Source of the DNA: Thermoplasmata archaeon
GTDB taxonomy: Archaea > Thermoplasmatota > Thermoplasmata > RBG-16-68-12 > JAJISG01
Length of the DNA: 48,122 bases
Assembly: GCA_046759865.1 (NCBI GenBank)
Contig: JBHIDB010000002.1
Location: forward strand, 1 to 48,122
Direction of reading: 5' to 3'
The translations under genes were made by a program, and so were the position numbers. This document shows positions 18,259 to 40,080 of the stretch, in pieces. Below the pieces are notes generated by a model. It was given only the letters and a program-made list of their open reading frames with translations. It searched no databases and was not told where the DNA came from. Every line of letters starts with the position of its first letter. Within the stretch, counting starts at the first letter, position 1.

Positions 18259-19752
18259 ATGGGATGGCGAAGGGGATGGCTTGGGGCACCCGCGCTCGTG
18301 GGCCTGGTCATTCTCTTCGCCGTCCCGGCCACTGCCCTGGACGTCGGCGTCGATTGGAGCCTTGAGAACGCCCCGTCCGTCGTTACTCTGGTCGCGACAG
18401 GTGTCTCTCAGGAGTCGGCCACCCTTGAGGGGAGCCTCGGTGGCTTGGGAGGGGAACCAAGCGTCCAGGTGAGCTTCGAGTGGGGCACCTCTCCGGCCCT
18501 CGGCCAGGAGACCACCTCACGGACCATGAGCGCGCCTGGGACGTTCGAAGCGACCATCGAAGATCTCACACCCGGGACGACCTACTACTACCGGGCCAAG
18601 GCCGCCGGCAATGGGACCGCACTCGGGGAGACCCTGACCTTCCAGACGGCCCCCGCCGCCGGTGTGGGCGACCTCCTTTCGCAGCTCTGGCTTTGGCTCG
18701 TCCTGCTTGCCATCGCGGCGGTGATGGGCTACCTGCTCACGCGGAGACAGCTGGCCGCCCGGCGCAGGCCCGGGGGGGCGGGTGTGACCGCGGCGAAGGC
18801 CACTAAGAAGGCGCGTGGTGGCCTCTCTGGAAGGGCCGGCGGCATTCGGGCCGTGGCAAAGGACGCCTCGGAGGCCCCCGCGGCCGACCTCGAGGGGGCC
18901 GTCGGCGCGGCGACGCTTTCGGAGACTCTCTGCCCCCACTGCGGCACCCAGCTCGCGGGAACCGCCGTATATTGTTACGGATGCGGTCGCGGACTCACTG
19001 AAGGCGCAGACTTGGATGAGCGGGTCGAGCGCGCCAAGGGGGCCCTGGCGGAGAACGAGCGGGACCGGGACGCCCTCTTCACACTAGGCGCCCACCTCGC
19101 GGCCGCCGGTGAGGCTCAGGAGGCGATCGAAATCCTCAACAAGCTCACTATGCTCGACCCCCACTTCCCGGGGATCTGGTGGGTCAAGGCCCGCGTCTTC
19201 CAGGCGCTTGGGAACCCTCAGGCAGCGGAGGCGGCCATGATGCGGGCCATGCAGGACGATCAGAGTGCGGGCGTGGAGGCGCTCCTCACGGCCGCAGGCA
19301 CGGCGGGAGTAGCGGCCACGGCCCCCGCGCCGACCCCGACGCCGCCTAAGAGCAAAGAGTCCAAGGAGCGCGCGGCGGGAAGAACGGGACCTGAGAAGTG
19401 TCCCCACTGTTCGGCGACCCTCGAACTCGAGGCTGGGAACTGTCCGAACTGCGGTCATTCGGTCCTCGATCAAGGCGAGGCGCTGGAAGCGAAGGTCACA
19501 CGAGCCCTCGCGATTCTCGACCTGGACGAGAACGATGTGGACGCCCTCTTCACCCTCGGAGCCTACCTGCTCTTGGACGGGAAGGTCAAGGAGGCCCTGG
19601 ACACGTTGGACCGCCTCACGCTCCTCGATCCAAGCTACCCGGGCCTCTGGTGGGTCAAGGCGCAAGCCTTCGAGAAGCTGGGAAACAAGAAGGCAGCCGA
19701 GTCGGCGATGGAGCGAGCCCAGAAGGGCGACGAGGACTCGGAGCAGGAATAG
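18259..19752 (+). CDS. bitopic membrane protein: signal peptide, FN3-like ectodomain, TM helix, and two cytoplasmic zinc-ribbon+TPR modules
   Basis: FN3-like block (ATLEGSL...VSFEWGTSP...DLTPGTTYYYRAKA). TM helix LWLWLVLLAIAAVMGYLLT followed by RRQLAARRR. CPHCG...CYGCG and CPHCS...CPNCG are each followed by DALFTLGA...LDP.[FY]PG.WWVKA TPR-like helices. Confidence 0.75.
   Translation: MGWRRGWLGAPALVGLVILFAVPATALDVGVDWSLENAPSVVTLVATGVSQESATLEGSLGGLGGEPSVQVSFEWGTSPALGQETTSRTMSAPGTFEATIEDLTPGTTYYYRAKAAGNGTALGETLTFQTAPAAGVGDLLSQLWLWLVLLAIAAVMGYLLTRRQLAARRRPGGAGVTAAKATKKARGGLSGRAGGIRAVAKDASEAPAADLEGAVGAATLSETLCPHCGTQLAGTAVYCYGCGRGLTEGADLDERVERAKGALAENERDRDALFTLGAHLAAAGEAQEAIEILNKLTMLDPHFPGIWWVKARVFQALGNPQAAEAAMMRAMQDDQSAGVEALLTAAGTAGVAATAPAPTPTPPKSKESKERAAGRTGPEKCPHCSATLELEAGNCPNCGHSVLDQGEALEAKVTRALAILDLDENDVDALFTLGAYLLLDGKVKEALDTLDRLTLLDPSYPGLWWVKAQAFEKLGNKKAAESAMERAQKGDEDSEQE
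18931..19263 (+). repeat. internal protein repeat 1 (zinc ribbon + TPR-like module, aa 225-335)
   Basis: Aligns by eye with aa 381-492 of the same protein: CPHC..., DALFTLGA, LDP.[FY]PG.WWVKA. Confidence 0.8.
19399..19734 (+). repeat. internal protein repeat 2 (zinc ribbon + TPR-like module, aa 381-492)
   Basis: See repeat 1. Confidence 0.8.
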
Positions 19753-23638: not shown

Positions 23639-24658
23639 CTAGGTCCAGCGATCCAGGCGGCTCTGTCCCCGTGACGCAGCACCCTCCTCGAGCTTTTGGA
23701 TCGCCGTCCGAACCCGTTCTTCGGAAAAGTCGAACCCCCGGCAGAGAAACTCCAGGATGGCCGGACCGTCCGGGTCCTCCCACGAGAGGTCGTACTCGTC
23801 GCTGACGTCGGGATCCAGGAAGATCTGGCGCACCTCTTCGCGCTCTTCGATGTCCAGGCCCGTTGCCGCCAGGGTCGCCTCGAGGTCGCCGTGCTCCCGG
23901 ATCAACTTCAAGGCTTTCTTCGGCCCGATACCCTTGATCCCGTCGTTGAAGTCCGTGCCGATGAGGAGGGCCATGTCCACGAGCTGTTCCCGGCTGACGC
24001 CGAGGGACGCCAGGTTTTCCGCGAGGCGGATGAGTTCGATCCGGACGGTGACATACTCGTTCCGCCGAGGGAGCTTCCGCCGACCTGAGAGGGCCAGGTT
24101 CTTGACGAGCCGGGTCGACCCGAAGAGGAGGGCGTCGTGGTCCTGCGACCCCGTCGCCCACGCATCCCCCTTGGCGACCATGTGGCTCGTCTGGGCCTCC
24201 CCATCGGAAGGGGCCTGGACCATCGGGACCCCCATGAGTCCGAGGAGCTCCTGGGCGCTGTCGAGCATCGGATCCGTGAGGCGCACGGCCTGTTGGGCTT
24301 TCCGTCGGGCCCTCTCAAGGTCGCCTGCCTTCCGGGCTTCCTGCCACTCGGCCTCCGCCCGGGCCCGGATCCCCGCACGGGCCTGCAGCACCCCCAGCTT
24401 CAGGGGGTTCGGGGTCCCGTCGAAGACGAAAATCGGGAGGATACCGCGCTGGAGGACGTTGGAGGTCCGGTAGATCAGCCCGCTGAGGTGGGAAGTCACC
24501 CGCCCTCGGCGGTCCATCAGGGGCGTTCCGTCGGGCTGGCGGATGATGGCCAGGAACTGGTAGAGGGCGTTGTAGGCGTCGATGGCGATGACCTTGCCCC
24601 GAAAGTCCTGCAGCCGCTGGGGGGTGTAGATCAGCAGACCCCCGAGGTCGACGCCCAT
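23639..24658 (-). CDS. fen: flap endonuclease 1
   Basis: MGVDLGGLL..., IAIDAYNALYQF, PIFVFDG, APSDGEAQ, GSQDHDALLFG, LIGTDFN and a C-terminal PIP-like tail (QSRLDRW). Confidence 0.92.
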   Translation of the reverse strand: MGVDLGGLLIYTPQRLQDFRGKVIAIDAYNALYQFLAIIRQPDGTPLMDRRGRVTSHLSGLIYRTSNVLQRGILPIFVFDGTPNPLKLGVLQARAGIRARAEAEWQEARKAGDLERARRKAQQAVRLTDPMLDSAQELLGLMGVPMVQAPSDGEAQTSHMVAKGDAWATGSQDHDALLFGSTRLVKNLALSGRRKLPRRNEYVTVRIELIRLAENLASLGVSREQLVDMALLIGTDFNDGIKGIGPKKALKLIREHGDLEATLAATGLDIEEREEVRQIFLDPDVSDEYDLSWEDPDGPAILEFLCRGFDFSEERVRTAIQKLEEGAASRGQSRLDRWT

Positions 24659-24685: not shown

Positions 24686-27600
24686 CTAAGAGCTTTCGCC
24701 CGAGGGGACGATGCCGATGGTGAAGGTCTCGTCGCTGATCTCCACGTCCGCGACGTAACCCTCCTCCCCTGCTTCCGAGACAAACAGGAAGTCTTTGGCA
24801 TTGGCCTCCTTCATGAGGTACTGCCTCTGCCTTCCCAGGAGGTGGCGGAGGCGCTCGTTCGCCACGAGCTGGATGACGATGGGATCCGAGTCTTCTAGCT
24901 CCAAGTCCTTCCGAGCGTCGAGGACGATCTTCATGAGTTCGTTGGCAAAGCCCTCCGCCTCCTCAGCTTCGGTGAGCCGCGTGTCCATGAAGACCATTCC
25001 CGCGCCAAAGTCCTGGACGATTACGTGGGGCGGGACAACAGCCTGGAAGCTGACCATGTCCCCGTCGATCTTTACAATCTGGCCCTCGATGCCCATTTCG
25101 TACCCGCCCTTGTCGATGCCCCTCTTGATTTTCCATGGGTCCTGCGACATGAGGATGAGTTGGATCTTCCGCGACCAGGCCTTGTAGGACCTCTCGACTA
25201 TGTCTTCCTTAATCGTCATATTGAGGTCCACCCCATGCCAGATCTCCCCCGATTCTAGAATGTCGACCTCGCGGGCGTTGGCATGGCTGAGAATCATCGC
25301 CTTGAAGTTCTCCGCTGCGGCGGCTACGTTGGGCGTCTTCGCACGAATCGCGATGCGGGGTACCGGCCAGTGGTACTCAAGGCCCGCCTTGCCGCGGGCC
25401 TTCCGAATGGCCTTGTCGACCTCTTTGACGATTTCGATAAACTCTCTGAGGGACTCGTCGTCGAGTTCGATGGTGATTCCCCCTGTCTCCCCTTGGGGCC
25501 GCTCCGTGGGGGAGAGTTTTTCCTCGACGTCCTTCGGCTCCAAAGCGGTCCTGACGGCGGCTAGACCCGCTATGGGACCCTTCTCCAAGAGGGCCTTCTC
25601 GACCTCCGGCATCATGGCCTCGACGCGGGCCTTGCGCTCCTTCGCGGCCAGACCCTCGAGAAGGTCCTGGGTGATGGGGCTCGAGGCCAGCGCCCCCAGG
25701 TCCGCGCCCTTCGCTTGGGAGATGAGGAGGGCCTTGCGCACGATCTCCCGGAGTCCTTCCAACGTCTCAGGGTCGTCCTGCAGGTCGGTCAGATCGTGCC
25801 CGTAGCGTTCCTCCGCCTCGTAAAGGAGCTGGAGGAGGTACAGCGGGAGGAGTTCGGGCTCGTTCCCGACTACAACAGCGCCGAGGTAGCAGTATTCCCC
25901 CCGCTCGAGGAGAACCTTGCTGTCCCTGAAGTCCATCCGTTTGATGCCGACGCGCTGCTTGCTCGCGAAGGCGTCCCGGAGGAACTCCTGCACGCCCTGG
26001 ATCATGGTGAGGAACAGCTCCTCGTCGAGTTCCTCCCGGAACTTCCTGCTCTCGTGTACCAGCAGTGTTCCATCAGGGAGGAAGAGGAGAGCGTCCTCGA
26101 CGGCATAGGTCCCCTTCGCGGAGACCTTGACGTCCCGGATGTAGTGGGACACGTAGGGGGTGTTGTCCAAGAGGCGTTGGTAGGTGAGCCGCAGATCCGC
26201 CAGCGTCGCGCCGGCCTTGGAGGGGCGGAGCCCGACCGTGACCCGTTTCGTCTCCCCCGGGCCTAGGCCGCTGACCTGAGAGGGCCCCTTGACCTCCATG
26301 TCGCCCCCGAACTGGATGGAGACGTCCTTGGCAGGCCAGCTCCCCTTGTTCGTGAGTTCCATCTCGTACCTCCCCCAGCTCCCCAGCTGGAGGGGAGGAA
26401 AGGTCCCCTCAACATGCACCTCGGGCTCCTTCCCTTCGAACTCCGTCTGCAGGGGCACCTGGATGGCCTGTCGGGCCTGGGGGAGCAGCACCTCGAGCTC
26501 GTCAACATCTTCCCGTTCGACGGCCTCGGTTGCTAGCTGGACGATGGCCTTCGCCCCATCCGTCACCAGCCCCTGTTCCGACGCCCGCTCGTACATCTCC
26601 GAGAGGTCTTCGAGCTCCTCGCGGTGGCGTCTCAGGAGGTAGGTCCGTTTTAGGTCCCGGGCCTCCTCGTGGGCGGACTCCAGACGCTTGGCGACGTGGC
26701 CTAGCTTGCCCTTGTCCCAAGCGTCTTGGGCGGCTCCAAGCTCCTCCTTCAGGCCGCTAACGTCGGCGCCCTCCTGCTCGAGGACCTCTACGGTACGAGA
26801 AAGTCGTCCCACCGTGGTTTCGACTTCCGCGGCCAGGACTTCTTCCTTTAGGGCCTGTACCGTGTCGTCCAAGTTCGAGACGACGCGGGCCGCCCCCTCG
26901 TAATCGCCGACTTCCAGGGCCGCCCGCGCCGTTTGCAGGTCCGTTTCGCTCCCCTCTACGCCGTGACCCAGGAGGGAGAGTCCTTCCAGGTCCTCGCTCA
27001 GGGAGTTCACTCCTGCCTCCAGCTTCTTCTGGAGTTCCTGCTGCGTCGCCAGGGCCATCTCCACGGCATCCTGGATGAGACTCCATGCGTCCTGGACGTC
27101 GTTCTCAAGGACCCCCCGGGCCTTCTCCAACAGACCCTCCGCTTCCGAAAGGTCCAGGCCGAGTGCCGTGCCCCCCCGGATGAGGTTCATCGCCTCCCCA
27201 ATGGCGGTTTCCGTCCCCTTCGGGTCCATGATCCAGCCATCCTTGGTGAAGTAGCACAGCTTGCGGCAGATCTCCTCGACCCCCTCCAGCTCGCTCAACA
27301 GGCCGCTCCACTTGTCGAGTTTCTCCCCAAACTTGCGTTCGATCTCGTTGATGAGCTCGACCATGTAGAGGGAAAGGAGGTCCGGTTCCTCGCCCAGGAG
27401 GACGGCGGTGAGGTATACGTCGGGGCCTCGCTCGATGACGATGCGACTCTCCCCGAATTCGAGACGTCGGAGGCCCACCTTCGTCCGGGTACGGAAGGAG
27501 TCCTTCACGAAGTCCTGGACCACGGTGAGCATGCCGCTGAAGACGTCCTCGTCGATCTCGTCCTGGATCTTGCGCGTCTGATGGCTGATGAGCCGGCCGT

Positions 27601-30600
27601 CGGCGTGCACGAGGAAAGCGTCCTCGACGATGTAGGTGCCTGCGGGGGAGGCATCCACGGAGGCCGCCTCTGTAACGTGGACCACCTCGCCGTCGAGGAC
27701 CCCCCGGTAGGTCAGGTCGACCTCCAGCGGGAGATGCCCGTGGGCCCGCGCCCTGACGTCCGCGCTGACGAGGTGGTTCTCCTGGGGCGCGAGACGCTTT
27801 AAGGGCTCGAGACCCTTGACCTCGACGTCCCCGCGCAGGCGGGCACTCACGTCGCTCGCGGGGGTCTGGCCGCTGTTCTTCACGTAGAACTCAAAACGAC
27901 TCCACCGGCCCTCTTCGAGCCCCTTCTTGGGAATGTCCAACTGGAGGGTGGGCCGGGCCTCGGGGGGCAGGTCCTTGGCGGCGGCACGAAGGAGGTCCCG
28001 GGCCTGACCCACGGTCGCCAGGGCGCCCCCTGGGTCGTCTTTGAGGAGACGCTTCGCCTCGGACAGGGCCTCCTTTGCGTCTTCGATCTCGAGCCCAAGC
28101 TTCTCGGCGAGACGGATGCCCCGGGAGACCTCCTTGATGGCGGCCTTGGCCGTGGGCGTTCCGTCGGCCCCGAGCTTGGTACGAGCGGCCGCAAGCATCT
28201 CCTCCATGCCCTCGGTGTCCCCGGTTTCCCACGAAGACTCGGCCTGGTCAAGGATGTCCAGGGCGTCCTCCACCGAAACGTCGGTCTCTTCACCCCCCTT
28301 TCGTTCCTTCCGCTTGGCCAGAGGCGAGGCCTGGAGGTCCTTGAGGATCTCGGAGACCCCCTGGGTGAGGGCCAGGGCTCGATCCTGCTCTCCCGCTGCG
28401 GCCGCCTCGCGCGCTTCCTCCAGAAGCGTGTTGGCTCGCTCCAGGCGGACGCCGGGTCCCTCGAGACTCTTCAGCTGCGCCTGAAGCTCCTCCACGACCT
28501 CGTCCATGTTCGCCAGCTCCGCTTTGATCCGCGTGTCCTCCACGATGTCCTCGATGACCTTGCAGTATTCCAGCGCCTCCACGTAGCGGCCGGCCTTGAG
28601 AGACCCCTGGGCGGTGGCGTAGACGTTCTCCCCTCGGGGGACGGAGAGCTTCTCCGCCTTGGCCTGTTTCAGCTTCTTGCTGACGCTCTTAAGGAGCTCC
28701 TTGGCCGCGATTTCTAGACCTCGAGCGAGGCCGTTCGCGATCTCCTCCAGCTCGGCCAGTTTCCCATCCGCCGTCTCGAAGTCGGCTTCGGCCAGGGATT
28801 CCTCTACCTCCCCCAGGAGTTCGTCAGAATCCTCGATGGTGATGTCCGCTCGACGGAGGTCTCGGAGCACCTCCTTCAGGTGGAAGAGGCGCCCCTGGAA
28901 ATCCAGGATCTTGCGGGTCACTTCGCCGCGGGCCTCGGACCGGGCCCGCTCCTTCTGGGAGCGGGTCTTCCTCTCCGCGATACGGGCCACCTCAATGGCT
29001 TCATCGAACCGGTTTTCGTCGAAGAGCTCCTGGGCCATAAGCAGCATGTCCTGCGCTTCGGGCATCGGCTTCCAGTTCTTCTCCGCCTTCTTCAGCTGAC
29101 GCTTGGCGGAAGCGATGAACTCGTGGGCGGCCCTCGCCAGATCGCTCTGGATGGCGGACGCCGTTTCCTCCAGCTCCTCGAGGAGGGGGGCTGCTTTCGC
29201 GAGCTCGTTCCCTTGCAGAGCGGCCACCGCCTGGTGAAAGGTGTCCTGGGAGTCGCTCACGTCGATGCCCGCCTTCCAGAGGCTCTCCAGAATCACCTTG
29301 ACGCGGACGGAGAGCTCCGAGAGGCGAGACAGCTCGTCCGCCTGCGCATCGGCGAGGCGTTGGGCCTCCCGAGCTTGGGCCTCCGCAACCTTGACCTCAA
29401 GGCCCTGGGCCTCCTCCAAGGCCTCTGCCAGGGAATCCTCCTTCAGGGCTTTCTTTAGCTTCGGCAGGGCGTCACGGAAGTCCCCCGCTTCATCCAGATC
29501 TTGGAGCTCCTGAATGATGCGCTCCAACTCCCCGAGTCGCGTCGCGATGTGCTTCTTGAGGGCCGCTTTGAGGCTGGCCTCCAGCTCCGAGACGACTTGG
29601 AGGAGGACTTGGAGATCCCGGACCTCCTTCTTCCCGAGTGCCGTCTCTGCGCGCTCGACGGCATCGTCCAAAGCTCCGTGATCGATCTCGGCCCGGTCCA
29701 GCAACGCGCCGAACTCCCGGGCCGTGGTGATCTTCTCTCCGGCCTCCTTCAGGGCGGCCTCCGAGCGCATGTCCTCGAGTTCTTTCTCCGCGATCTTGTC
29801 GAAGTGATCAATACGGGCCTGCTTGCAGGCCTCGAGCCCGAGGTTGGCCAGATCGAGGGCTTGGAGCGCGTCCTCATCCACCAGAGACGTCTCGGCCCGG
29901 TCGTGGAAGGCCTGCGCCTGCGGCACGCTGACCTCCAGTCGGTCCAGACCTGTGAGCTCCGTCTTCAGGTCTTCCAACGACCGCAACGCGGCGGCTGCGA
30001 GGACTTCCCTCAGGCCCTCCGTGGTCTGCTCGGACCTGGTGAGGAGGTTTTCTGCCTCCTTGATGCGCTTGTCCGTGAGGGCCTCCGACGCCTTCTCCAG
30101 CAAGCCGGCGGCGGCGCTGACCTCGATACCGGCAACCTTGAGCTCCGCCTGGGTCGTCCGTAGGCCGGCCATGCGCCGGATGAGTTCGTTCTCGCGCTTC
30201 GTGGCCTCGGCCTCAAACTTCGCCTCCACGAGGGTCTCGATCTCGGTGTGGCTCCCTTTGCTGAGCGCCTTCTCCACTTCGACGAGGAGTTCCCGGGCCC
30301 CCGAAGCGCTAACGCCCCCCTTGCCCGCCTTGTCGACGAGCATTTCCACCGTGTTGAGGACGAGATCCCGCTCCCGTTCCCGGCGCGCCTTTGCCGTCTC
30401 CCGCTGGGCCCGACTCCAGGCCTTTCGATAGACCGGCCAGCTTCCCTTCCCGAGCGCCTCCTCTGCCTCGGAGGCGGCTGCCTCGGCCTTCGCTGGGTCG
30501 GCCTTCATCGCGCGCAGGTCGTCGATTTCCGAGGTGAGAAGGTCCAGAGACTCACGAGCCTTCCGCGCGCGGGCAGCCTCCTTTGCAAGGGCACTCGCCT

Positions 30601-31609
30601 TTCGGAGGTGCTTCGTGACGTCCCCGAACTTCGCGTCGGCCAGTGCCTTCCATGCTTTCTCGAGGACCGGAATGGTCGCTGAGAGGTCCGACCCTTCCGC
30701 GGCTTCCGCCTCGAGGGCCTTTTCCACTTTGCGGATCGAGGCCTCCCCGATCTGTGTCTTGCGGGCCTTCTCGCCAAACTCCCGGGCGGTCCGCGTCCAC
30801 TTCTGGACGTCGGCGTAGACCCCGGTTTTCAGGGCCTTCCGGGCCCGCGCCAGGTATTCCTCGCCTTCCGCAACGTCGGCACGGCGGTCCGCCGCCGCCT
30901 TCAGCTTTCGCTCTACCCCATCAATGAGTTCGACCGCCCGCGCGTACTTGCGGGCATAGTCGGCCGCCCGACTCGCGGTCGCGGCCAGCTCATTGGCCTG
31001 CGTGAAGTCCGCCTTCTGGAGGGCTTCCTGGGCCTTCTGGAGGAACTCCTCGGCCTTCTCGGTCTGACCTCCCCGTTCTCGGGCGTATCCGATCCGTTTC
31101 TGGGCATCCTCGAGGCGCTTCCACGCCTTGCCGCCATGGCCGGTGAGCTTCAGACCCCGTAGGGCGGCCTGGAGGCCCTGGGACAGGTTCTTGAAGTCGT
31201 CCCGTTGGACGCGCTCCTGCAGGGCGATGACCTTCTCTTGAGCGGCCTCCACGTCAATCCCGGCCCCTTCGGCGATCCGAAGCTTGAGCTTCGCCTCGCT
31301 GATCTTGCGGTCCCAGGTCGTCCGCCGTCTGGCCAGATCCAATCCCTTCTTCAGGCCCTGGCCAAACCGCGCGGCCTCCTTCACGTCGTCGTTCTCGAGA
31401 GCCTTCCGGGCCTGGGAGAGGAGGGATCGCCCGTAGCGCGCGTCAAACCCCTCCGGGACCGACTCCATCTTCTTGGTCGTTCCCTCGAGGAGCCGCTCCG
31501 CCTCCTTCCTTCCCGTCTTCCGCGGCCGCGCCTTCGCTCCGGCGCCGCAGAAGGAACAGGCTTGCGTCTCCTCGATGACGGGGGCGTCGCAGAGCGGGCA
31601 GGAGGTCAA
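24686..31609 (-). CDS. giant (2307 aa) cytoplasmic multidomain protein of unknown function: Zn ribbon, ~22 helical repeats, 2x (beta-sandwich + longin/roadblock-like module), IleRS-C-terminal-like domain
   Basis: Uninterrupted 6.9-kb ORF with genome-typical codon bias. TTG start with AGGAG 8 nt upstream (31618-31622) and a TATA-like box at 31654-31664. CPLC-x10-CSFC at aa 4-21. No signal peptide, TM helix or P-loop seen. Confidence 0.85.
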   Translation of the reverse strand: MTSCPLCDAPVIEETQACSFCGAGAKARPRKTGRKEAERLLEGTTKKMESVPEGFDARYGRSLLSQARKALENDDVKEAARFGQGLKKGLDLARRRTTWDRKISEAKLKLRIAEGAGIDVEAAQEKVIALQERVQRDDFKNLSQGLQAALRGLKLTGHGGKAWKRLEDAQKRIGYARERGGQTEKAEEFLQKAQEALQKADFTQANELAATASRAADYARKYARAVELIDGVERKLKAAADRRADVAEGEEYLARARKALKTGVYADVQKWTRTAREFGEKARKTQIGEASIRKVEKALEAEAAEGSDLSATIPVLEKAWKALADAKFGDVTKHLRKASALAKEAARARKARESLDLLTSEIDDLRAMKADPAKAEAAASEAEEALGKGSWPVYRKAWSRAQRETAKARRERERDLVLNTVEMLVDKAGKGGVSASGARELLVEVEKALSKGSHTEIETLVEAKFEAEATKRENELIRRMAGLRTTQAELKVAGIEVSAAAGLLEKASEALTDKRIKEAENLLTRSEQTTEGLREVLAAAALRSLEDLKTELTGLDRLEVSVPQAQAFHDRAETSLVDEDALQALDLANLGLEACKQARIDHFDKIAEKELEDMRSEAALKEAGEKITTAREFGALLDRAEIDHGALDDAVERAETALGKKEVRDLQVLLQVVSELEASLKAALKKHIATRLGELERIIQELQDLDEAGDFRDALPKLKKALKEDSLAEALEEAQGLEVKVAEAQAREAQRLADAQADELSRLSELSVRVKVILESLWKAGIDVSDSQDTFHQAVAALQGNELAKAAPLLEELEETASAIQSDLARAAHEFIASAKRQLKKAEKNWKPMPEAQDMLLMAQELFDENRFDEAIEVARIAERKTRSQKERARSEARGEVTRKILDFQGRLFHLKEVLRDLRRADITIEDSDELLGEVEESLAEADFETADGKLAELEEIANGLARGLEIAAKELLKSVSKKLKQAKAEKLSVPRGENVYATAQGSLKAGRYVEALEYCKVIEDIVEDTRIKAELANMDEVVEELQAQLKSLEGPGVRLERANTLLEEAREAAAAGEQDRALALTQGVSEILKDLQASPLAKRKERKGGEETDVSVEDALDILDQAESSWETGDTEGMEEMLAAARTKLGADGTPTAKAAIKEVSRGIRLAEKLGLEIEDAKEALSEAKRLLKDDPGGALATVGQARDLLRAAAKDLPPEARPTLQLDIPKKGLEEGRWSRFEFYVKNSGQTPASDVSARLRGDVEVKGLEPLKRLAPQENHLVSADVRARAHGHLPLEVDLTYRGVLDGEVVHVTEAASVDASPAGTYIVEDAFLVHADGRLISHQTRKIQDEIDEDVFSGMLTVVQDFVKDSFRTRTKVGLRRLEFGESRIVIERGPDVYLTAVLLGEEPDLLSLYMVELINEIERKFGEKLDKWSGLLSELEGVEEICRKLCYFTKDGWIMDPKGTETAIGEAMNLIRGGTALGLDLSEAEGLLEKARGVLENDVQDAWSLIQDAVEMALATQQELQKKLEAGVNSLSEDLEGLSLLGHGVEGSETDLQTARAALEVGDYEGAARVVSNLDDTVQALKEEVLAAEVETTVGRLSRTVEVLEQEGADVSGLKEELGAAQDAWDKGKLGHVAKRLESAHEEARDLKRTYLLRRHREELEDLSEMYERASEQGLVTDGAKAIVQLATEAVEREDVDELEVLLPQARQAIQVPLQTEFEGKEPEVHVEGTFPPLQLGSWGRYEMELTNKGSWPAKDVSIQFGGDMEVKGPSQVSGLGPGETKRVTVGLRPSKAGATLADLRLTYQRLLDNTPYVSHYIRDVKVSAKGTYAVEDALLFLPDGTLLVHESRKFREELDEELFLTMIQGVQEFLRDAFASKQRVGIKRMDFRDSKVLLERGEYCYLGAVVVGNEPELLPLYLLQLLYEAEERYGHDLTDLQDDPETLEGLREIVRKALLISQAKGADLGALASSPITQDLLEGLAAKERKARVEAMMPEVEKALLEKGPIAGLAAVRTALEPKDVEEKLSPTERPQGETGGITIELDDESLREFIEIVKEVDKAIRKARGKAGLEYHWPVPRIAIRAKTPNVAAAAENFKAMILSHANAREVDILESGEIWHGVDLNMTIKEDIVERSYKAWSRKIQLILMSQDPWKIKRGIDKGGYEMGIEGQIVKIDGDMVSFQAVVPPHVIVQDFGAGMVFMDTRLTEAEEAEGFANELMKIVLDARKDLELEDSDPIVIQLVANERLRHLLGRQRQYLMKEANAKDFLFVSEAGEEGYVADVEISDETFTIGIVPSGESS
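25775..26428 (-). repeat. giant protein module 2 (aa 1728-1945), paralogous to module 1
   Basis: See module 1. Confidence 0.85.
27305..27955 (-). repeat. giant protein module 1 (aa 1219-1435): beta-sandwich (CARDB-like) + alpha/beta longin/roadblock-like domain
   Basis: Aligns along its whole length with aa 1728-1945. For example W.R[FY]E..[VL].N.G..PA.DVS......[DG]VEVKG, L.LTY, GTY.VEDA.L...DG.L..H..RK...E.DE..F..M...VQ.F..D.F......G..R..F..S.....ERG...YL.AV..G.EP.LL.LY...L...E...G..L. Confidence 0.85.
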
Positions 31610-31653
31610 CGTACCTACTCCTGGAGAGTAACGTGCGATTAGGGGCCAAATGC

Positions 31654-31664
31654 GAGTATAAAAC
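31654..31664 (-). promoter_or_regulatory. TATA-like box (GTTTTATACTC on minus strand) for the giant gene
   Basis: AT-rich box ~50 nt upstream of the TTG start. This leaves a ~20-25 nt leader that contains the AGGAG Shine-Dalgarno-like element. Confidence 0.4.
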
Positions 31665-31714
31665 TCACCACTTCGTTATCAGGCTCGATACACTGGCGTC
31701 GGGGGCGTGTGCCG

Positions 31715-31894
31715 TCAGGACAGCAGCGGACCCATCACGGTGAGGGCCAGTCCCATCCATGCGATCATGCCGATCGTGAGGACGATGCCCACCAGGTCGA
31801 AGAGGACGTTGAGGAGGATCACAAGTAACGGGGCCACGACCCCAACGAGCACGTAGAGGAGGTTTAGCAGCCAGGGTTCCAAGGCGATCCTCAC
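31715..31894 (-). CDS. small hydrophobic protein (59 aa, two predicted TM helices), not in the supplied ORF track
   Basis: My own translation: (GTG)MRIALEPWLLNLLYVLVGVVAPLLVILLNVLFDLVGIVLTIGMIAWMGLALTVMGPLLS*. The GTG start overlaps the rpe stop as GTGA. G/C-ending codons dominate, as in neighbouring genes. Confidence 0.45.
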   Translation of the reverse strand: MRIALEPWLLNLLYVLVGVVAPLLVILLNVLFDLVGIVLTIGMIAWMGLALTVMGPLLS

Positions 31895-32562
31895 CGCGGA
31901 GGCTCGAGGCCGCCCTCGGCGCTCTTCCGGAGCTTGGCGATGTTCGACCCAACGCGACCGGCGTAGACCCCGGTCCCCGCCACCAGGACGCGGGCTCCCG
32001 CTCGGGTCGCGACCCCCGCCGTCACGGTGTCGATGCCCCCGTCGACCTCGAGCTCGGTGTGAAGGCCCTCCTCATCCAGGAATTCTCGGGTCTCCTCCAC
32101 CTTGGGCAAGACCTCACTCATGAAGGCCTGGCCCCCGAAGCCCGGCTCCACGGTCATGACAAGGAAGAGGTCCGTGTCCCCCAGTAGCGGCTTCGCCGCC
32201 TCGAAGGTGGTGTTGGGCTTGATGGCCAGCCCGGTCCGGCTCCCGTGGTCCCGGATGGCTGCCAACGTCTCGGCGGGTTCCTCCTCCGCCTCCAGGTGGA
32301 TCGTCATGATACTCGCACCCGCCTCTGCGAACTCCTTGACGTAGCGACCTGGCCGCTGGATCATGAGGTGGACGTCGAACGGCACATCGGTTACGGGCCG
32401 GAGGGCAGCAACGATTGGGGGGCCGAGGGTGATGTTTGGGACGAACAGGCCGTCCATGACGTCGATGTGGACGTAGTCGGCCCCTCCTCTTTCGGCCCGC
32501 TTCACCTCCTCCCCCAGCCTGCTGAAATCGGCCGCCAGGATGGAGGGGGCGATCTTGATCAT
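31891..32562 (-). CDS. rpe: ribulose-phosphate 3-epimerase
   Basis: MIKIAPSILAADF, HIDVMDG.FVPN, DVHLM, VMTVEPGFGGQ, EVDGG. I chose the ATG at 32562 because a TATA-like box (32584-32593) lies ~27 nt upstream. Confidence 0.9.
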   Translation of the reverse strand: MIKIAPSILAADFSRLGEEVKRAERGGADYVHIDVMDGLFVPNITLGPPIVAALRPVTDVPFDVHLMIQRPGRYVKEFAEAGASIMTIHLEAEEEPAETLAAIRDHGSRTGLAIKPNTTFEAAKPLLGDTDLFLVMTVEPGFGGQAFMSEVLPKVEETREFLDEEGLHTELEVDGGIDTVTAGVATRAGARVLVAGTGVYAGRVGSNIAKLRKSAEGGLEPPR

Positions 32563-39960: not shown

Positions 39961-40033
39961 GCCCCGATAGTGTAGCGGCCGATCATCCAGGCCTGTCGAG
40001 CCTGGGACTCGGGTTCAAATCCCGATCGGGGCG
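39961..40033 (+). tRNA. tRNA-Asp (anticodon GTC)
   Basis: Folded by hand. Acceptor GCCCCGA/TCGGGGC, anticodon stem CAGGC/GCCTG with loop CTGTCGA (GTC at 39995-39997), T-arm TCGGG/TTCAAAT/CCCGA, discriminator G. 73 nt, CCA not encoded. Confidence 0.9.
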
Positions 40034-40080
40034 CTTTCCCGTGAGAGGACGAGGTACGGCAGGTCCTCGCGCAAGGCGAA

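Follow-up and report, generated by a model that had tools for sequence, protein, structure and literature searches.

A conserved 254-kDa protein of uncultured Thermoplasmata archaea that joins a predicted helical rod and two modules with a putative longin-like fold to an isoleucyl-tRNA synthetase-type C-terminal domain

The DNA analysed here (the window: 48,122 nucleotides (nt) of contig JBHIDB010000002.1 from a Thermoplasmata archaeon, about 65% G+C) encodes on its minus strand a giant protein of 2307 amino acids (aa) and 254 kDa. The protein is real and is conserved among uncultured Thermoplasmata archaea, where it represents an uncharacterised family. We tentatively propose that it is a soluble, cytoplasmic scaffold built around a rod of fixed length, which would bind tRNA-like RNA and dock GTPase or membrane partners. 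This function as a whole we infer from the domains, the modelled folds and the gene neighbourhoods of the family. The architecture, and the system that it would imply, we rate as categorically new, recognisable family membership being confined to the level of single domains (DUF5915, CARDB, zinc ribbon). An earlier note on this DNA, made from the sequence, had read most of the domain order from the translation of the uninterrupted 6.9-kb open reading frame (ORF), and both the reading frame with its TTG start and the order of the following parts hold.

24686..31609, minus strand: giant gene, uninterrupted ORF with TTG start; product 2307 aa, 254 kDa, pI 5.0, soluble
31523..31609, minus strand: N-terminal C4 zinc ribbon (aa 1-29), CPLC-x10-CSFC
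27965..31522, minus strand: 18 tandem 63-aa helical repeats, the predicted rod (aa 30-1215), from an iterated hidden Markov model (HMM)
27650..27964, minus strand: Ig-like beta-sandwich 1, CARDB type (aa 1216-1320)
27266..27649, minus strand: AB1, alpha/beta (AB) domain, predicted to be longin-like (aa 1321-1448)
26456..27220, minus strand: four further helical repeats of 63-66 aa (aa 1464-1718), from the iterated HMM
26123..26437, minus strand: Ig-like beta-sandwich 2 (aa 1725-1829)
25736..26122, minus strand: AB2, second and more divergent domain predicted to be longin-like (aa 1830-1958)
25466..25735, minus strand: linker between AB2 and the C-terminal domain (aa 1959-2048), labelled 'helical' in the earlier note
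24689..25465, minus strand: C-terminal domain (CT; aa 2049-2307), a copy of the C-terminal tRNA-binding appendage of archaeal/eukaryotic-type isoleucyl-tRNA synthetase (IleRS), Pfam DUF5915
24911..24913, minus strand: codon of the invariant Arg2233, aligned with Arg999 of yeast IleRS (ScIleRS)

Among 5.8 billion proteins a search recovered about 40 full-length homologues, which are 2270-2400 aa long and from 80% down to 28% identical, and a scan of GTDB species representatives found the giant gene in 75 species, all of them uncultured Thermoplasmata or metagenome-assembled genomes (MAGs) labelled 'Methanomassiliicoccales'; carriers include SG8-5, RBG_19FT_COMBO_69_17, UBA280 and one closed MAG of 1.99 Mb. 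Named homologues, which come from Thermoplasmata MAGs, are called no more than 'DUF5915 domain-containing protein' or 'hypothetical protein'. In agreement with what the earlier note had stated, no characterised family in Pfam, NCBIfam or the PDB matches the whole protein, and literature searches found no published work on the family. Thirty-seven family sequences align end to end over 2419 columns, as against the 2307 residues of the giant protein. Mean column identity is highest in AB1 (0.79), the most conserved part, and lies at 0.54 in the rod and 0.51 in the linker. The possibility that so large a gene is an assembly chimera or a fusion artefact can be regarded as effectively excluded. In its favour, the gene is split or truncated in a few related MAG loci (L067, L066, L039 and L013), but more than 50 independent assemblies contain full-length collinear orthologues whose domain order is the same and whose length is nearly identical, the promoter and the start codon are conserved, and direct repeats above 24 nt as well as any meaningful tandem array are absent from the coding DNA. 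The repeats in the protein are therefore old and diverged, and the repeat-driven misassembly against which the earlier note had asked for a check is no issue. Split or N-terminally truncated copies (L067, 7598-13616; L066, L039, L013, L036 and L017) likely result from frameshift or assembly error, or less probably from pseudogenisation.

All complete family genes share the core REPn-Ig-AB-REPm-Ig-AB-CT, where REP stands for the helical repeats, and they fall into three length classes, each with a different conserved neighbour. The long class, which includes the giant gene, comprises proteins of about 2270-2400 aa with about 18+4 repeats, the mid class proteins of about 1890-1980 aa with about 10+5 repeats, and the short class proteins of about 1530-1580 aa with about 7+2 repeats.

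The C-terminal domain is, as judged from its alignments, a true copy of the tRNA-binding extension of archaeal IleRS, which bears out the resemblance that had been noticed in the translation. It scores 44.8 bits against Pfam DUF5915 (gathering cut-off 27; aa 2157-2300). The last 254 aa align with aa ~798-1051 of a Thermoplasmata IleRS at 30% identity and with zero gaps (E 3e-43), and the family HMM of CT matches the same IleRS, which comes from a related locus, with E 9e-61. The only significant PDB sequence matches of the whole-family profile are IleRS chains (8c8u, E 8e-7). With yeast IleRS (8WND) the alignment extends over residues 817-1037, much of the C-terminal appendage. In the yeast enzyme this appendage is divided into C-ter A, B and C; it holds the anticodon stem-loop as in a clamp and also contacts the elbow of the tRNA, and Arg999 hydrogen-bonds the wobble base N34 of the tRNA, as established crystallographically (PMC11685878). 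Throughout the 37 family members D2209, T2210, G2220, A2222, E2224 and R2233 do not vary, with E2219 conserved to at least 90%, and this signature aligns to D975, T976, E985, G986, A988, E990 and R999 of ScIleRS. Compared with the appendage of archaeal/eukaryotic-type IleRS (examples being yeast IleRS and P. megaterium IleRS2, 8C8U), CT is homologous over its whole ~254 aa and keeps the signature DT...EG.A.E...R including the N34-contacting Arg, yet it is detached from a synthetase core and sits at the end of a 2000-aa scaffold. Searches of the 2307 aa with Pfam and NCBIfam found neither tRNA-synt_1 nor Anticodon_1; the giant protein is not a synthetase.

The mid class connects the family with IleRS a second time. 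In 10 loci (among them L086:13911-18362, L018, L052-L054, L058, L060, L063 and L064) an IleRS gene lies 250-280 nt downstream of the family gene on the same strand. These IleRS sequences are mutually 55-100% identical and, at 1483 aa, unusually long, with a C-terminal extension of about 430 aa that carries helix-hairpin-helix motifs, three zinc ribbons and DUF835. They retain their own appendage, so that CT of the giant type is an extra copy.

Proteins that carry a synthetase-derived tRNA-binding domain outside the enzyme are known: Arc1p, AIMP1/p43 and Trbp111 are trans-acting tRNA-binding paralogues of domains appended to synthetases. By analogy, the giant protein would embody the same concept of such a free domain that can hold tRNA or pass it on, and the IleRS adjacency in the mid class fits this. 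However, whereas Arc1p, AIMP1/p43 and Trbp111 use an OB-fold, the giant protein uses the C-ter A/B/C fold of IleRS, and none of the three is part of a giant rod or tied to longin-like domains. Because the residues for reading a tRNA anticodon loop are kept, because IleRS adjoins the mid-class genes and because of the Arc1p/Trbp111 analogy, CT would bind tRNA or a tRNA-like RNA in trans; we suggest that as the head of the scaffold it would hold tRNA (tRNA-Ile-like) or a related RNA. Carried by a giant scaffold, a detached and strongly conserved IleRS appendage would add a new type to the known paralogues of synthetase domains.

The two Ig-AB modules (aa 1216-1448 and aa 1725-1958) are duplicates of each other, with 38% identity and E 1e-45, just as a beta-sandwich plus alpha/beta module present in two copies had been described from the translation. 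Ig 1 is of CARDB type (Pfam 30.1 bits, cut-off 22.7, aa 1226-1297); Ig 2 falls below the Pfam cut-off for CARDB, yet is homologous to Ig 1. In an AlphaFold2 (AF2) model of Ig plus AB (predicted local distance difference test score, pLDDT, 82) a beta-sandwich comes first and an alpha/beta domain second, and the structures that Foldseek retrieves with it include the CARDB entries 2kl6 and 3idu. AB has about 128 aa, and AB1 carries in the family alignment the invariant motif Y.VED.FL.H.DGRL..H...DED.FSGMLTVV..F..DS. The model gives AB the topology bb-a-bbb-a followed by two short helices, which is the longin topology (DSSP, model m7b6050462053: strands 113-121 and 126-131, helix 140-159, strands 166-171, 174-180 and 184-191, helices 198-218, 224-227 and 230-235). 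Among its Foldseek matches are the longin domains of AP-1 sigma (4p6z_S, target-normalised template modelling (TM) score, TMt, 0.50), zeta-COP (5mc7, 0.46) and sigma3 (9ddt_B, 0.53), all at E ~3-5e-4, in a search made with the two-domain Ig+AB model and dominated by matches to the Ig part; chains of the GATOR1 and TRAPPII complexes were also matched. We therefore consider the fold of AB to be, on the strength of the model, longin-like, which is compatible with the small regulatory-fold modules of which the earlier note had spoken. The longin and roadblock sequence models (Pfam Longin, Clat_adaptor_s and Robl_LC7) give no match to AB at E<=1, and PDB sequence searches with the module 1 and AB profiles returned only YcnI (E 0.016, to the Ig part) and DsrB (E 0.65), neither of them relevant. 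Kinship of AB with a Roadblock (Robl_LC7) protein encoded in locus L078 was rejected (hhalign probability 0.3%).

The longin-type fold is widely used as a platform for small GTPases. With the longin/roadblock platforms (AP sigma and zeta-COP; the guanine nucleotide exchange factors Mon1-Ccz1, TRAPP and DENN; MglB-MglA; Ragulator) AB shares the modelled topology bb-a-bbb-a(a), and the two AB domains in each giant protein recall their dimeric state. It differs from them in having no detectable sequence relationship, in the CARDB-type Ig that precedes it in the giant family and its relatives, and in its mostly juxtamembrane position, where a zinc ribbon often goes with it. The same Foldseek search could be taken to indicate a coat or adaptor for membrane remodelling, in which the trunk and the Ig-AB modules would resemble the large subunits of adaptins, COPI or the BBSome and would be recruited by Rab- or Arf-like GTPases. 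Over the whole of Ig plus AB (about 250 columns, E ~1e-4) the model indeed aligns to the AP2 alpha and beta2 appendages (1w80, 9ppp and 1e42), the COPI leaf (9qpq_H) and the BBSome (6vbu_9), and relatives of the giant protein are linked to a Rab-like GTPase. However, these superpositions have TM scores of only 0.25-0.32 with a root-mean-square deviation (rmsd) of 10-13 Å, the Ig fold alone explains most of the matches, the trunk is not a solenoid of the HEAT or adaptin type, and no other coat components were seen. We regard such a role as highly improbable.

AB domains are found far beyond the giant family. An AB profile matched 3931 proteins at E<=1e-3, 1933 of them at E<=1e-10, among 1.84 billion cluster representatives, and the domain has no Pfam-A or NCBIfam model and no PDB sequence match. 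We surveyed its architectures with custom HMMs (proteins P0106-P0204 and P0232-P0284, for example P0138, P0120, P0145 and P0270). Where AB-bearing organisms are named they are Methanomassiliicoccales, Thermoplasmata or Euryarchaeota MAGs, an apparent confinement that is based on few named matches, most homologues being unnamed fragments and the cluster entries almost free of taxonomy. In the commonest architecture AB follows a transmembrane helix, with or without a zinc ribbon, either in small proteins (P0110 and P0145) or as the C-terminal cytoplasmic tail of proteins of 1000-2300 aa. The latter carry FG-GAP, PKD or Big_9 domains N-terminally and AB immediately after the transmembrane helix; in P0138, for instance, the order is PKD, transmembrane helix, RRR, AB, zinc ribbon. 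Other forms have three to four transmembrane helices followed by two AB domains (about 570 aa), or one or two zinc ribbons of the TFIIB type followed by AB (about 250 aa). Still others are giants of the form REPn-Ig-AB-REPm, and in the giant family and its relatives an Ig of CARDB type precedes AB. In two proteins of about 1150 aa (P0098 and P0101) AB occurs together with DNA-binding SAP domains, Lys/Arg-rich termini and an incomplete CT of the IleRS type, whose last subdomain is missing.

The genes next to the short-class members are those of a small GTPase. In all seven loci (L068, L069, L071, L074, L075, L076 and L087) such a gene directly adjoins the family gene on the same strand: six loci have it 55-150 nt downstream, whereas in the seventh it comes first and the two genes overlap by 14 nt. 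Apart from the family member, no other gene is kept in all seven. The GTPase has about 282 aa (for example L075:7831-8679), scores 103-112 bits against Pfam Ras, contains the motifs G1 (GDxxVGKTS), G3 (WDIIGQ), G4 (NKADL) and G5 (SAKTG) as well as a conserved C-terminal extension of about 100 aa, and has its best PDB matches in Rab21, Rab43, Rab5, Ypt6, Ypt7 and the Asgard 'Thorarchaeota Rab' (E ~1e-33 to 1e-31). A relative of 187 aa (Pfam Ras 124 bits) abuts a gene with four transmembrane helices and two AB domains in L084 and L085. Prokaryotic GTPases of the Rup type have been reported to be uncoupled from MglB (PMC4316618). Short-class loci also contain a 785-aa neighbour that clustered with the giant protein. 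It was discarded as a partner, as it is a STAND-like protein (helix-turn-helix, P-loop and TPR) that had been matched via its alanine-rich repeats only. Since AB has a predicted longin fold, since the short-class genes form apparent operons with the GTPase and since AB also forms the tails of surface proteins, the Ig-AB modules are likely docking sites. We suggest that the two modules serve as docking platforms in the manner of longin/roadblock domains, whose partners would be the Rab-like GTPase, the AB-bearing tails of membrane proteins, or both. A longin-like domain accompanied by Rab-like GTPase genes outside the Asgard archaea would bear on the long-standing question of how widely eukaryote-like GTPase-plus-platform logic occurs in archaea.

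Between these modules and the N-terminus lies the rod. Profile autocorrelation of the family alignment has peaks at lags of 63, 126 and 189 (aa 60-640) and of 66 and 132 (aa 1440-1730), and the iterated HMM yields the same 18 and four repeats that had been counted in the translation; with the repeat HMM 18-23 units are detectable per family member. The consensus contains RRAGADVSEAEELLAEAEEALEEGDYDEAEELL. Six units (aa 157-545) were modelled by AF2 from an alignment of 11 sequences with high confidence (pLDDT 89). The model shows alternating helices of about 15 and about 40 residues, and each long helix is therefore common to two consecutive three-helix units. At a rise of about 3 nm per unit the first block would measure about 55 nm and the second about 12 nm. 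With spectrin and dystrophin, EzrA (PMC4243239) and S. aureus Ebh (2DGJ) the protein shares tandem helical units, a long helix that runs into the next unit and an elongated shape, modelled in the case of the giant protein. Its unit of 63 aa is nevertheless shorter than those of spectrin (~106 aa), EzrA (~100 aa) and Ebh (126 aa), no sequence model of these rods matches it and no Foldseek match to them is significant, and it lacks the transmembrane anchor of EzrA as well as actin-binding or other known end domains. Foldseek against the PDB with the six-repeat model gave nothing at E<=1e-3; the highest TM score was obtained with 2dgj, a fragment of the Ebh rod (TMq 0.30, TMt 0.40), and compact designed helical repeat proteins, which head the list of matches, were rejected at an rmsd above 40 Å. 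The repeats are neither TPRs (TPR_1 13.9 bits, cut-off 27.8) nor spectrin repeats, as there is no Pfam Spectrin match and no spectrin structure among the Foldseek matches. Of the 'spectrin-like' rod of the earlier note the continuous inter-unit helix remains, which is all that spectrin shares with it, so that the term holds as an analogy only. Within each clade the length of the protein is tightly kept. In clade B of the long class 20 of 24 proteins have 2381-2388 aa at pairwise identities down to 37%, and for a repeat protein such near-constant length despite divergence argues for selection against length change. Length kept so strictly suggests that the protein may serve as a molecular spacer of defined size. 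We propose that the rod would fix the distance between the docking and the RNA-binding sites.

The 63-aa rod repeat also recurs, in 13-36 copies, in further giants (P0045-P0057, of 1500 aa or 3100-3200 aa), which have a C-terminal CARDB-type Ig, in several cases with a RING finger as well, but neither AB nor CT; the group of 3100-3200 aa combines more than 30 rod repeats with Ig and RING finger, again with no AB. PF26154 appears in the precomputed annotation of some distant repeat-rich giants. Neither the 63-aa rod repeat nor AB has a family model, and a description of both would annotate thousands of archaeal proteins.

The zinc ribbon at the N-terminus (CPLC-x10-CSFC) consists of two CxxC knuckles whose C4, C7, C18 and C21 columns are at least 90% conserved in 37 orthologues, although Pfam zinc-ribbon models score below their cut-offs there; its presence had been noted before, with a range (nt 31544-31600) that is off by 3 and should read 31547-31600. 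The giant protein has no membrane-spanning segment, the maximum 19-residue Kyte-Doolittle mean being 1.28.

Would a passive role then suffice? The protein could be a membrane skeleton or linker with a spectrin- or talin-like role, in which its AB domains pair with the AB tails of PKD/FG-GAP surface proteins while CT has been co-opted for protein binding and has no part in RNA binding. Such a role would suit the place of AB in large surface proteins with FG-GAP, PKD or Big_9 domains, directly behind the transmembrane helix, the modelled elongated rod with its best TM score to Ebh, the strict conservation of length and the acidic CT. However, if no nucleotide were bound, it would be difficult to see why the tRNA-contact signature, with the N34 Arg, has stayed invariant in the family, and the links to Rab-like GTPase and IleRS genes suggest regulation or translation rather than pure structure. 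We consider this explanation unlikely. The two gene links point instead to a signalling or tRNA-linked scaffold and not to a passive cytoskeletal element.

The conserved neighbour of the long class is a different one.

23639..24658, minus strand: FEN1/XPG gene, 27 nt 3' of the giant gene

In most long-class loci FEN1 lies 27-60 nt downstream of the giant gene on the same strand, as part of the conserved neighbourhood Rpe, small ORF, giant gene, FEN1, DUF92 and, in part, PGM. Read by eye, the final 150 nt of the giant gene show no TATA-like box, and co-transcription with FEN1 is probable. This arrangement would agree with a tether in DNA replication or repair that is made together with FEN1 and bridges DNA in the way of SMC/Rad50 proteins but without their ATPase, with zinc ribbon and CT binding nucleic acid. 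Further points that speak for such a tether are the relatives P0098 and P0101 with their SAP domains and basic tails, and the genes with three to four transmembrane helices and two AB domains that lie near FEN1 in other lineages. The latter adjacency, seen on three independent contigs (L081, L082 and L083; convergent and abutting in two, 1.4 kb apart in the third), echoes that of the giant gene and FEN1. On the other hand, the Rpe-giant-FEN1-DUF92-PGM block is syntenic, so that the adjacency may be mere conservation of gene order, several loci have an insertion of 1.3-1.5 kb between the giant gene and FEN1, and the mid- and short-class genes are not beside FEN1. For these reasons the link to FEN1 is weak functional evidence. 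Moreover, Pfam, NCBIfam and a motif scan detected no DNA-binding domain and no ATPase in the giant protein. The Walker A motif [AG]x4GK[ST] is absent from its 2307 aa and there is no Pfam match to an ATPase of the SMC/Rad50 type, nor any transmembrane helix; the protein is soluble and, as the earlier note had argued, neither an S-layer protein nor an SMC/Rad50-type ATPase. A DNA tether therefore appears decidedly improbable to us.

We thus return to the scaffold that binds tRNA-like RNA and docks GTPase or membrane partners, which would link tRNA or IleRS to a site that is under GTPase control and probably close to the membrane. Several observations weigh against it. A gene for a Rab-like GTPase is absent from the 48-kb window and from the 10 kb around any long- or mid-class gene, and the GTPase link is carried over from the AB modules of shorter relatives, which are 38-40% identical. 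The adjacency to IleRS is seen solely in the mid class and could reflect the evolutionary origin of CT rather than a joint function, and FEN1, the neighbour of the long class, is not accounted for by a scaffold. CT is acidic, with a net charge of -14 as compared to -8 for the yeast appendage, and IleRS clamps the tRNA between its appendage and the anticodon-binding domain, the latter of which is absent from the giant protein. As to the models, the longin assignment comes from one AF2 model with TM scores of about 0.5 and no match to a longin or roadblock sequence model, and the geometry of the rod derives from predicted secondary structure alone.

In a more far-reaching form of the proposal, the protein would be a long-range adaptor in an unrecognised organising system of non-Asgard archaea that uses longin-like AB domains and Rab-like GTPases. 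Here a rod of about 60-70 nm would carry AB modules that are switched by a GTPase or docked to receptor tails, and an IleRS-derived head that holds tRNA-Ile or IleRS. We put this forward as a speculation that is quite unlikely to hold in full; if it were true, part of the translation machinery would be positioned in space under GTPase control. What the earlier note had overlooked in either case is the large, mostly juxtamembrane AB family and the GTPase and IleRS neighbourhoods of the relatives.

The giant gene has a promoter of its own, and the TATA-like box and the AGGAG 8 nt before the TTG codon that had been pointed out earlier are both located and conserved in orthologous loci.

31618..31622, minus strand: AGGAG, Shine-Dalgarno-like site 8 nt ahead of the TTG; GGAG is kept in orthologous loci
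31657..31662, minus strand: TTTATA box, about 51 nt 5' of the start codon; TTTAT is invariant across the aligned orthologous loci
31677..31690, minus strand: palindrome TATC-N6-GATA, which reads TATCGAGCCTGATA, 14 nt 5' of the TATA box; candidate transcription-factor site

Alignments of the upstream regions of orthologous loci show that the start position is conserved, and the palindrome is invariant in both promoter alignments. The pattern TATCN6GAT-N12-20-TTTAT has exactly one match per locus in 55 related loci (range L001-L077), always on the strand of the gene and just 5' of the giant-gene start. It spans the mid class and orthologues down to 28% protein identity and is absent from the short-class loci. 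In the window TTATCN6GATA occurs once, where 0.07 occurrences are expected. The conserved palindrome thus looks like the site of a dedicated transcription factor, and its retention in 55 loci suggests that expression of the giant gene is regulated.

Upstream of this promoter, at window 31715-31894 on the minus strand, lies the gene of a conserved 59-aa protein with two predicted transmembrane helices. Its start codon, GTG, shares nucleotides with the stop codon of the ribulose-phosphate 3-epimerase gene, TGA, the two together reading GTGA; L001 (9709-9876) encodes a homologue. The listed ORF 31665-31952 was rejected, being in the wrong reading frame relative to this small gene. Elsewhere in the window there are no further genes for AB domains, rod repeats or GTPases. 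A 497-aa protein encoded at window 18259-19752 on the plus strand contains TPR repeats, two zinc-ribbon motifs and an FN3-like PhoD_N/Pur_ac_phosph_N segment, with no AB. The sole RNA gene detected in the window is that of tRNA-Asp(GTC), at 39961-40034 on the plus strand.

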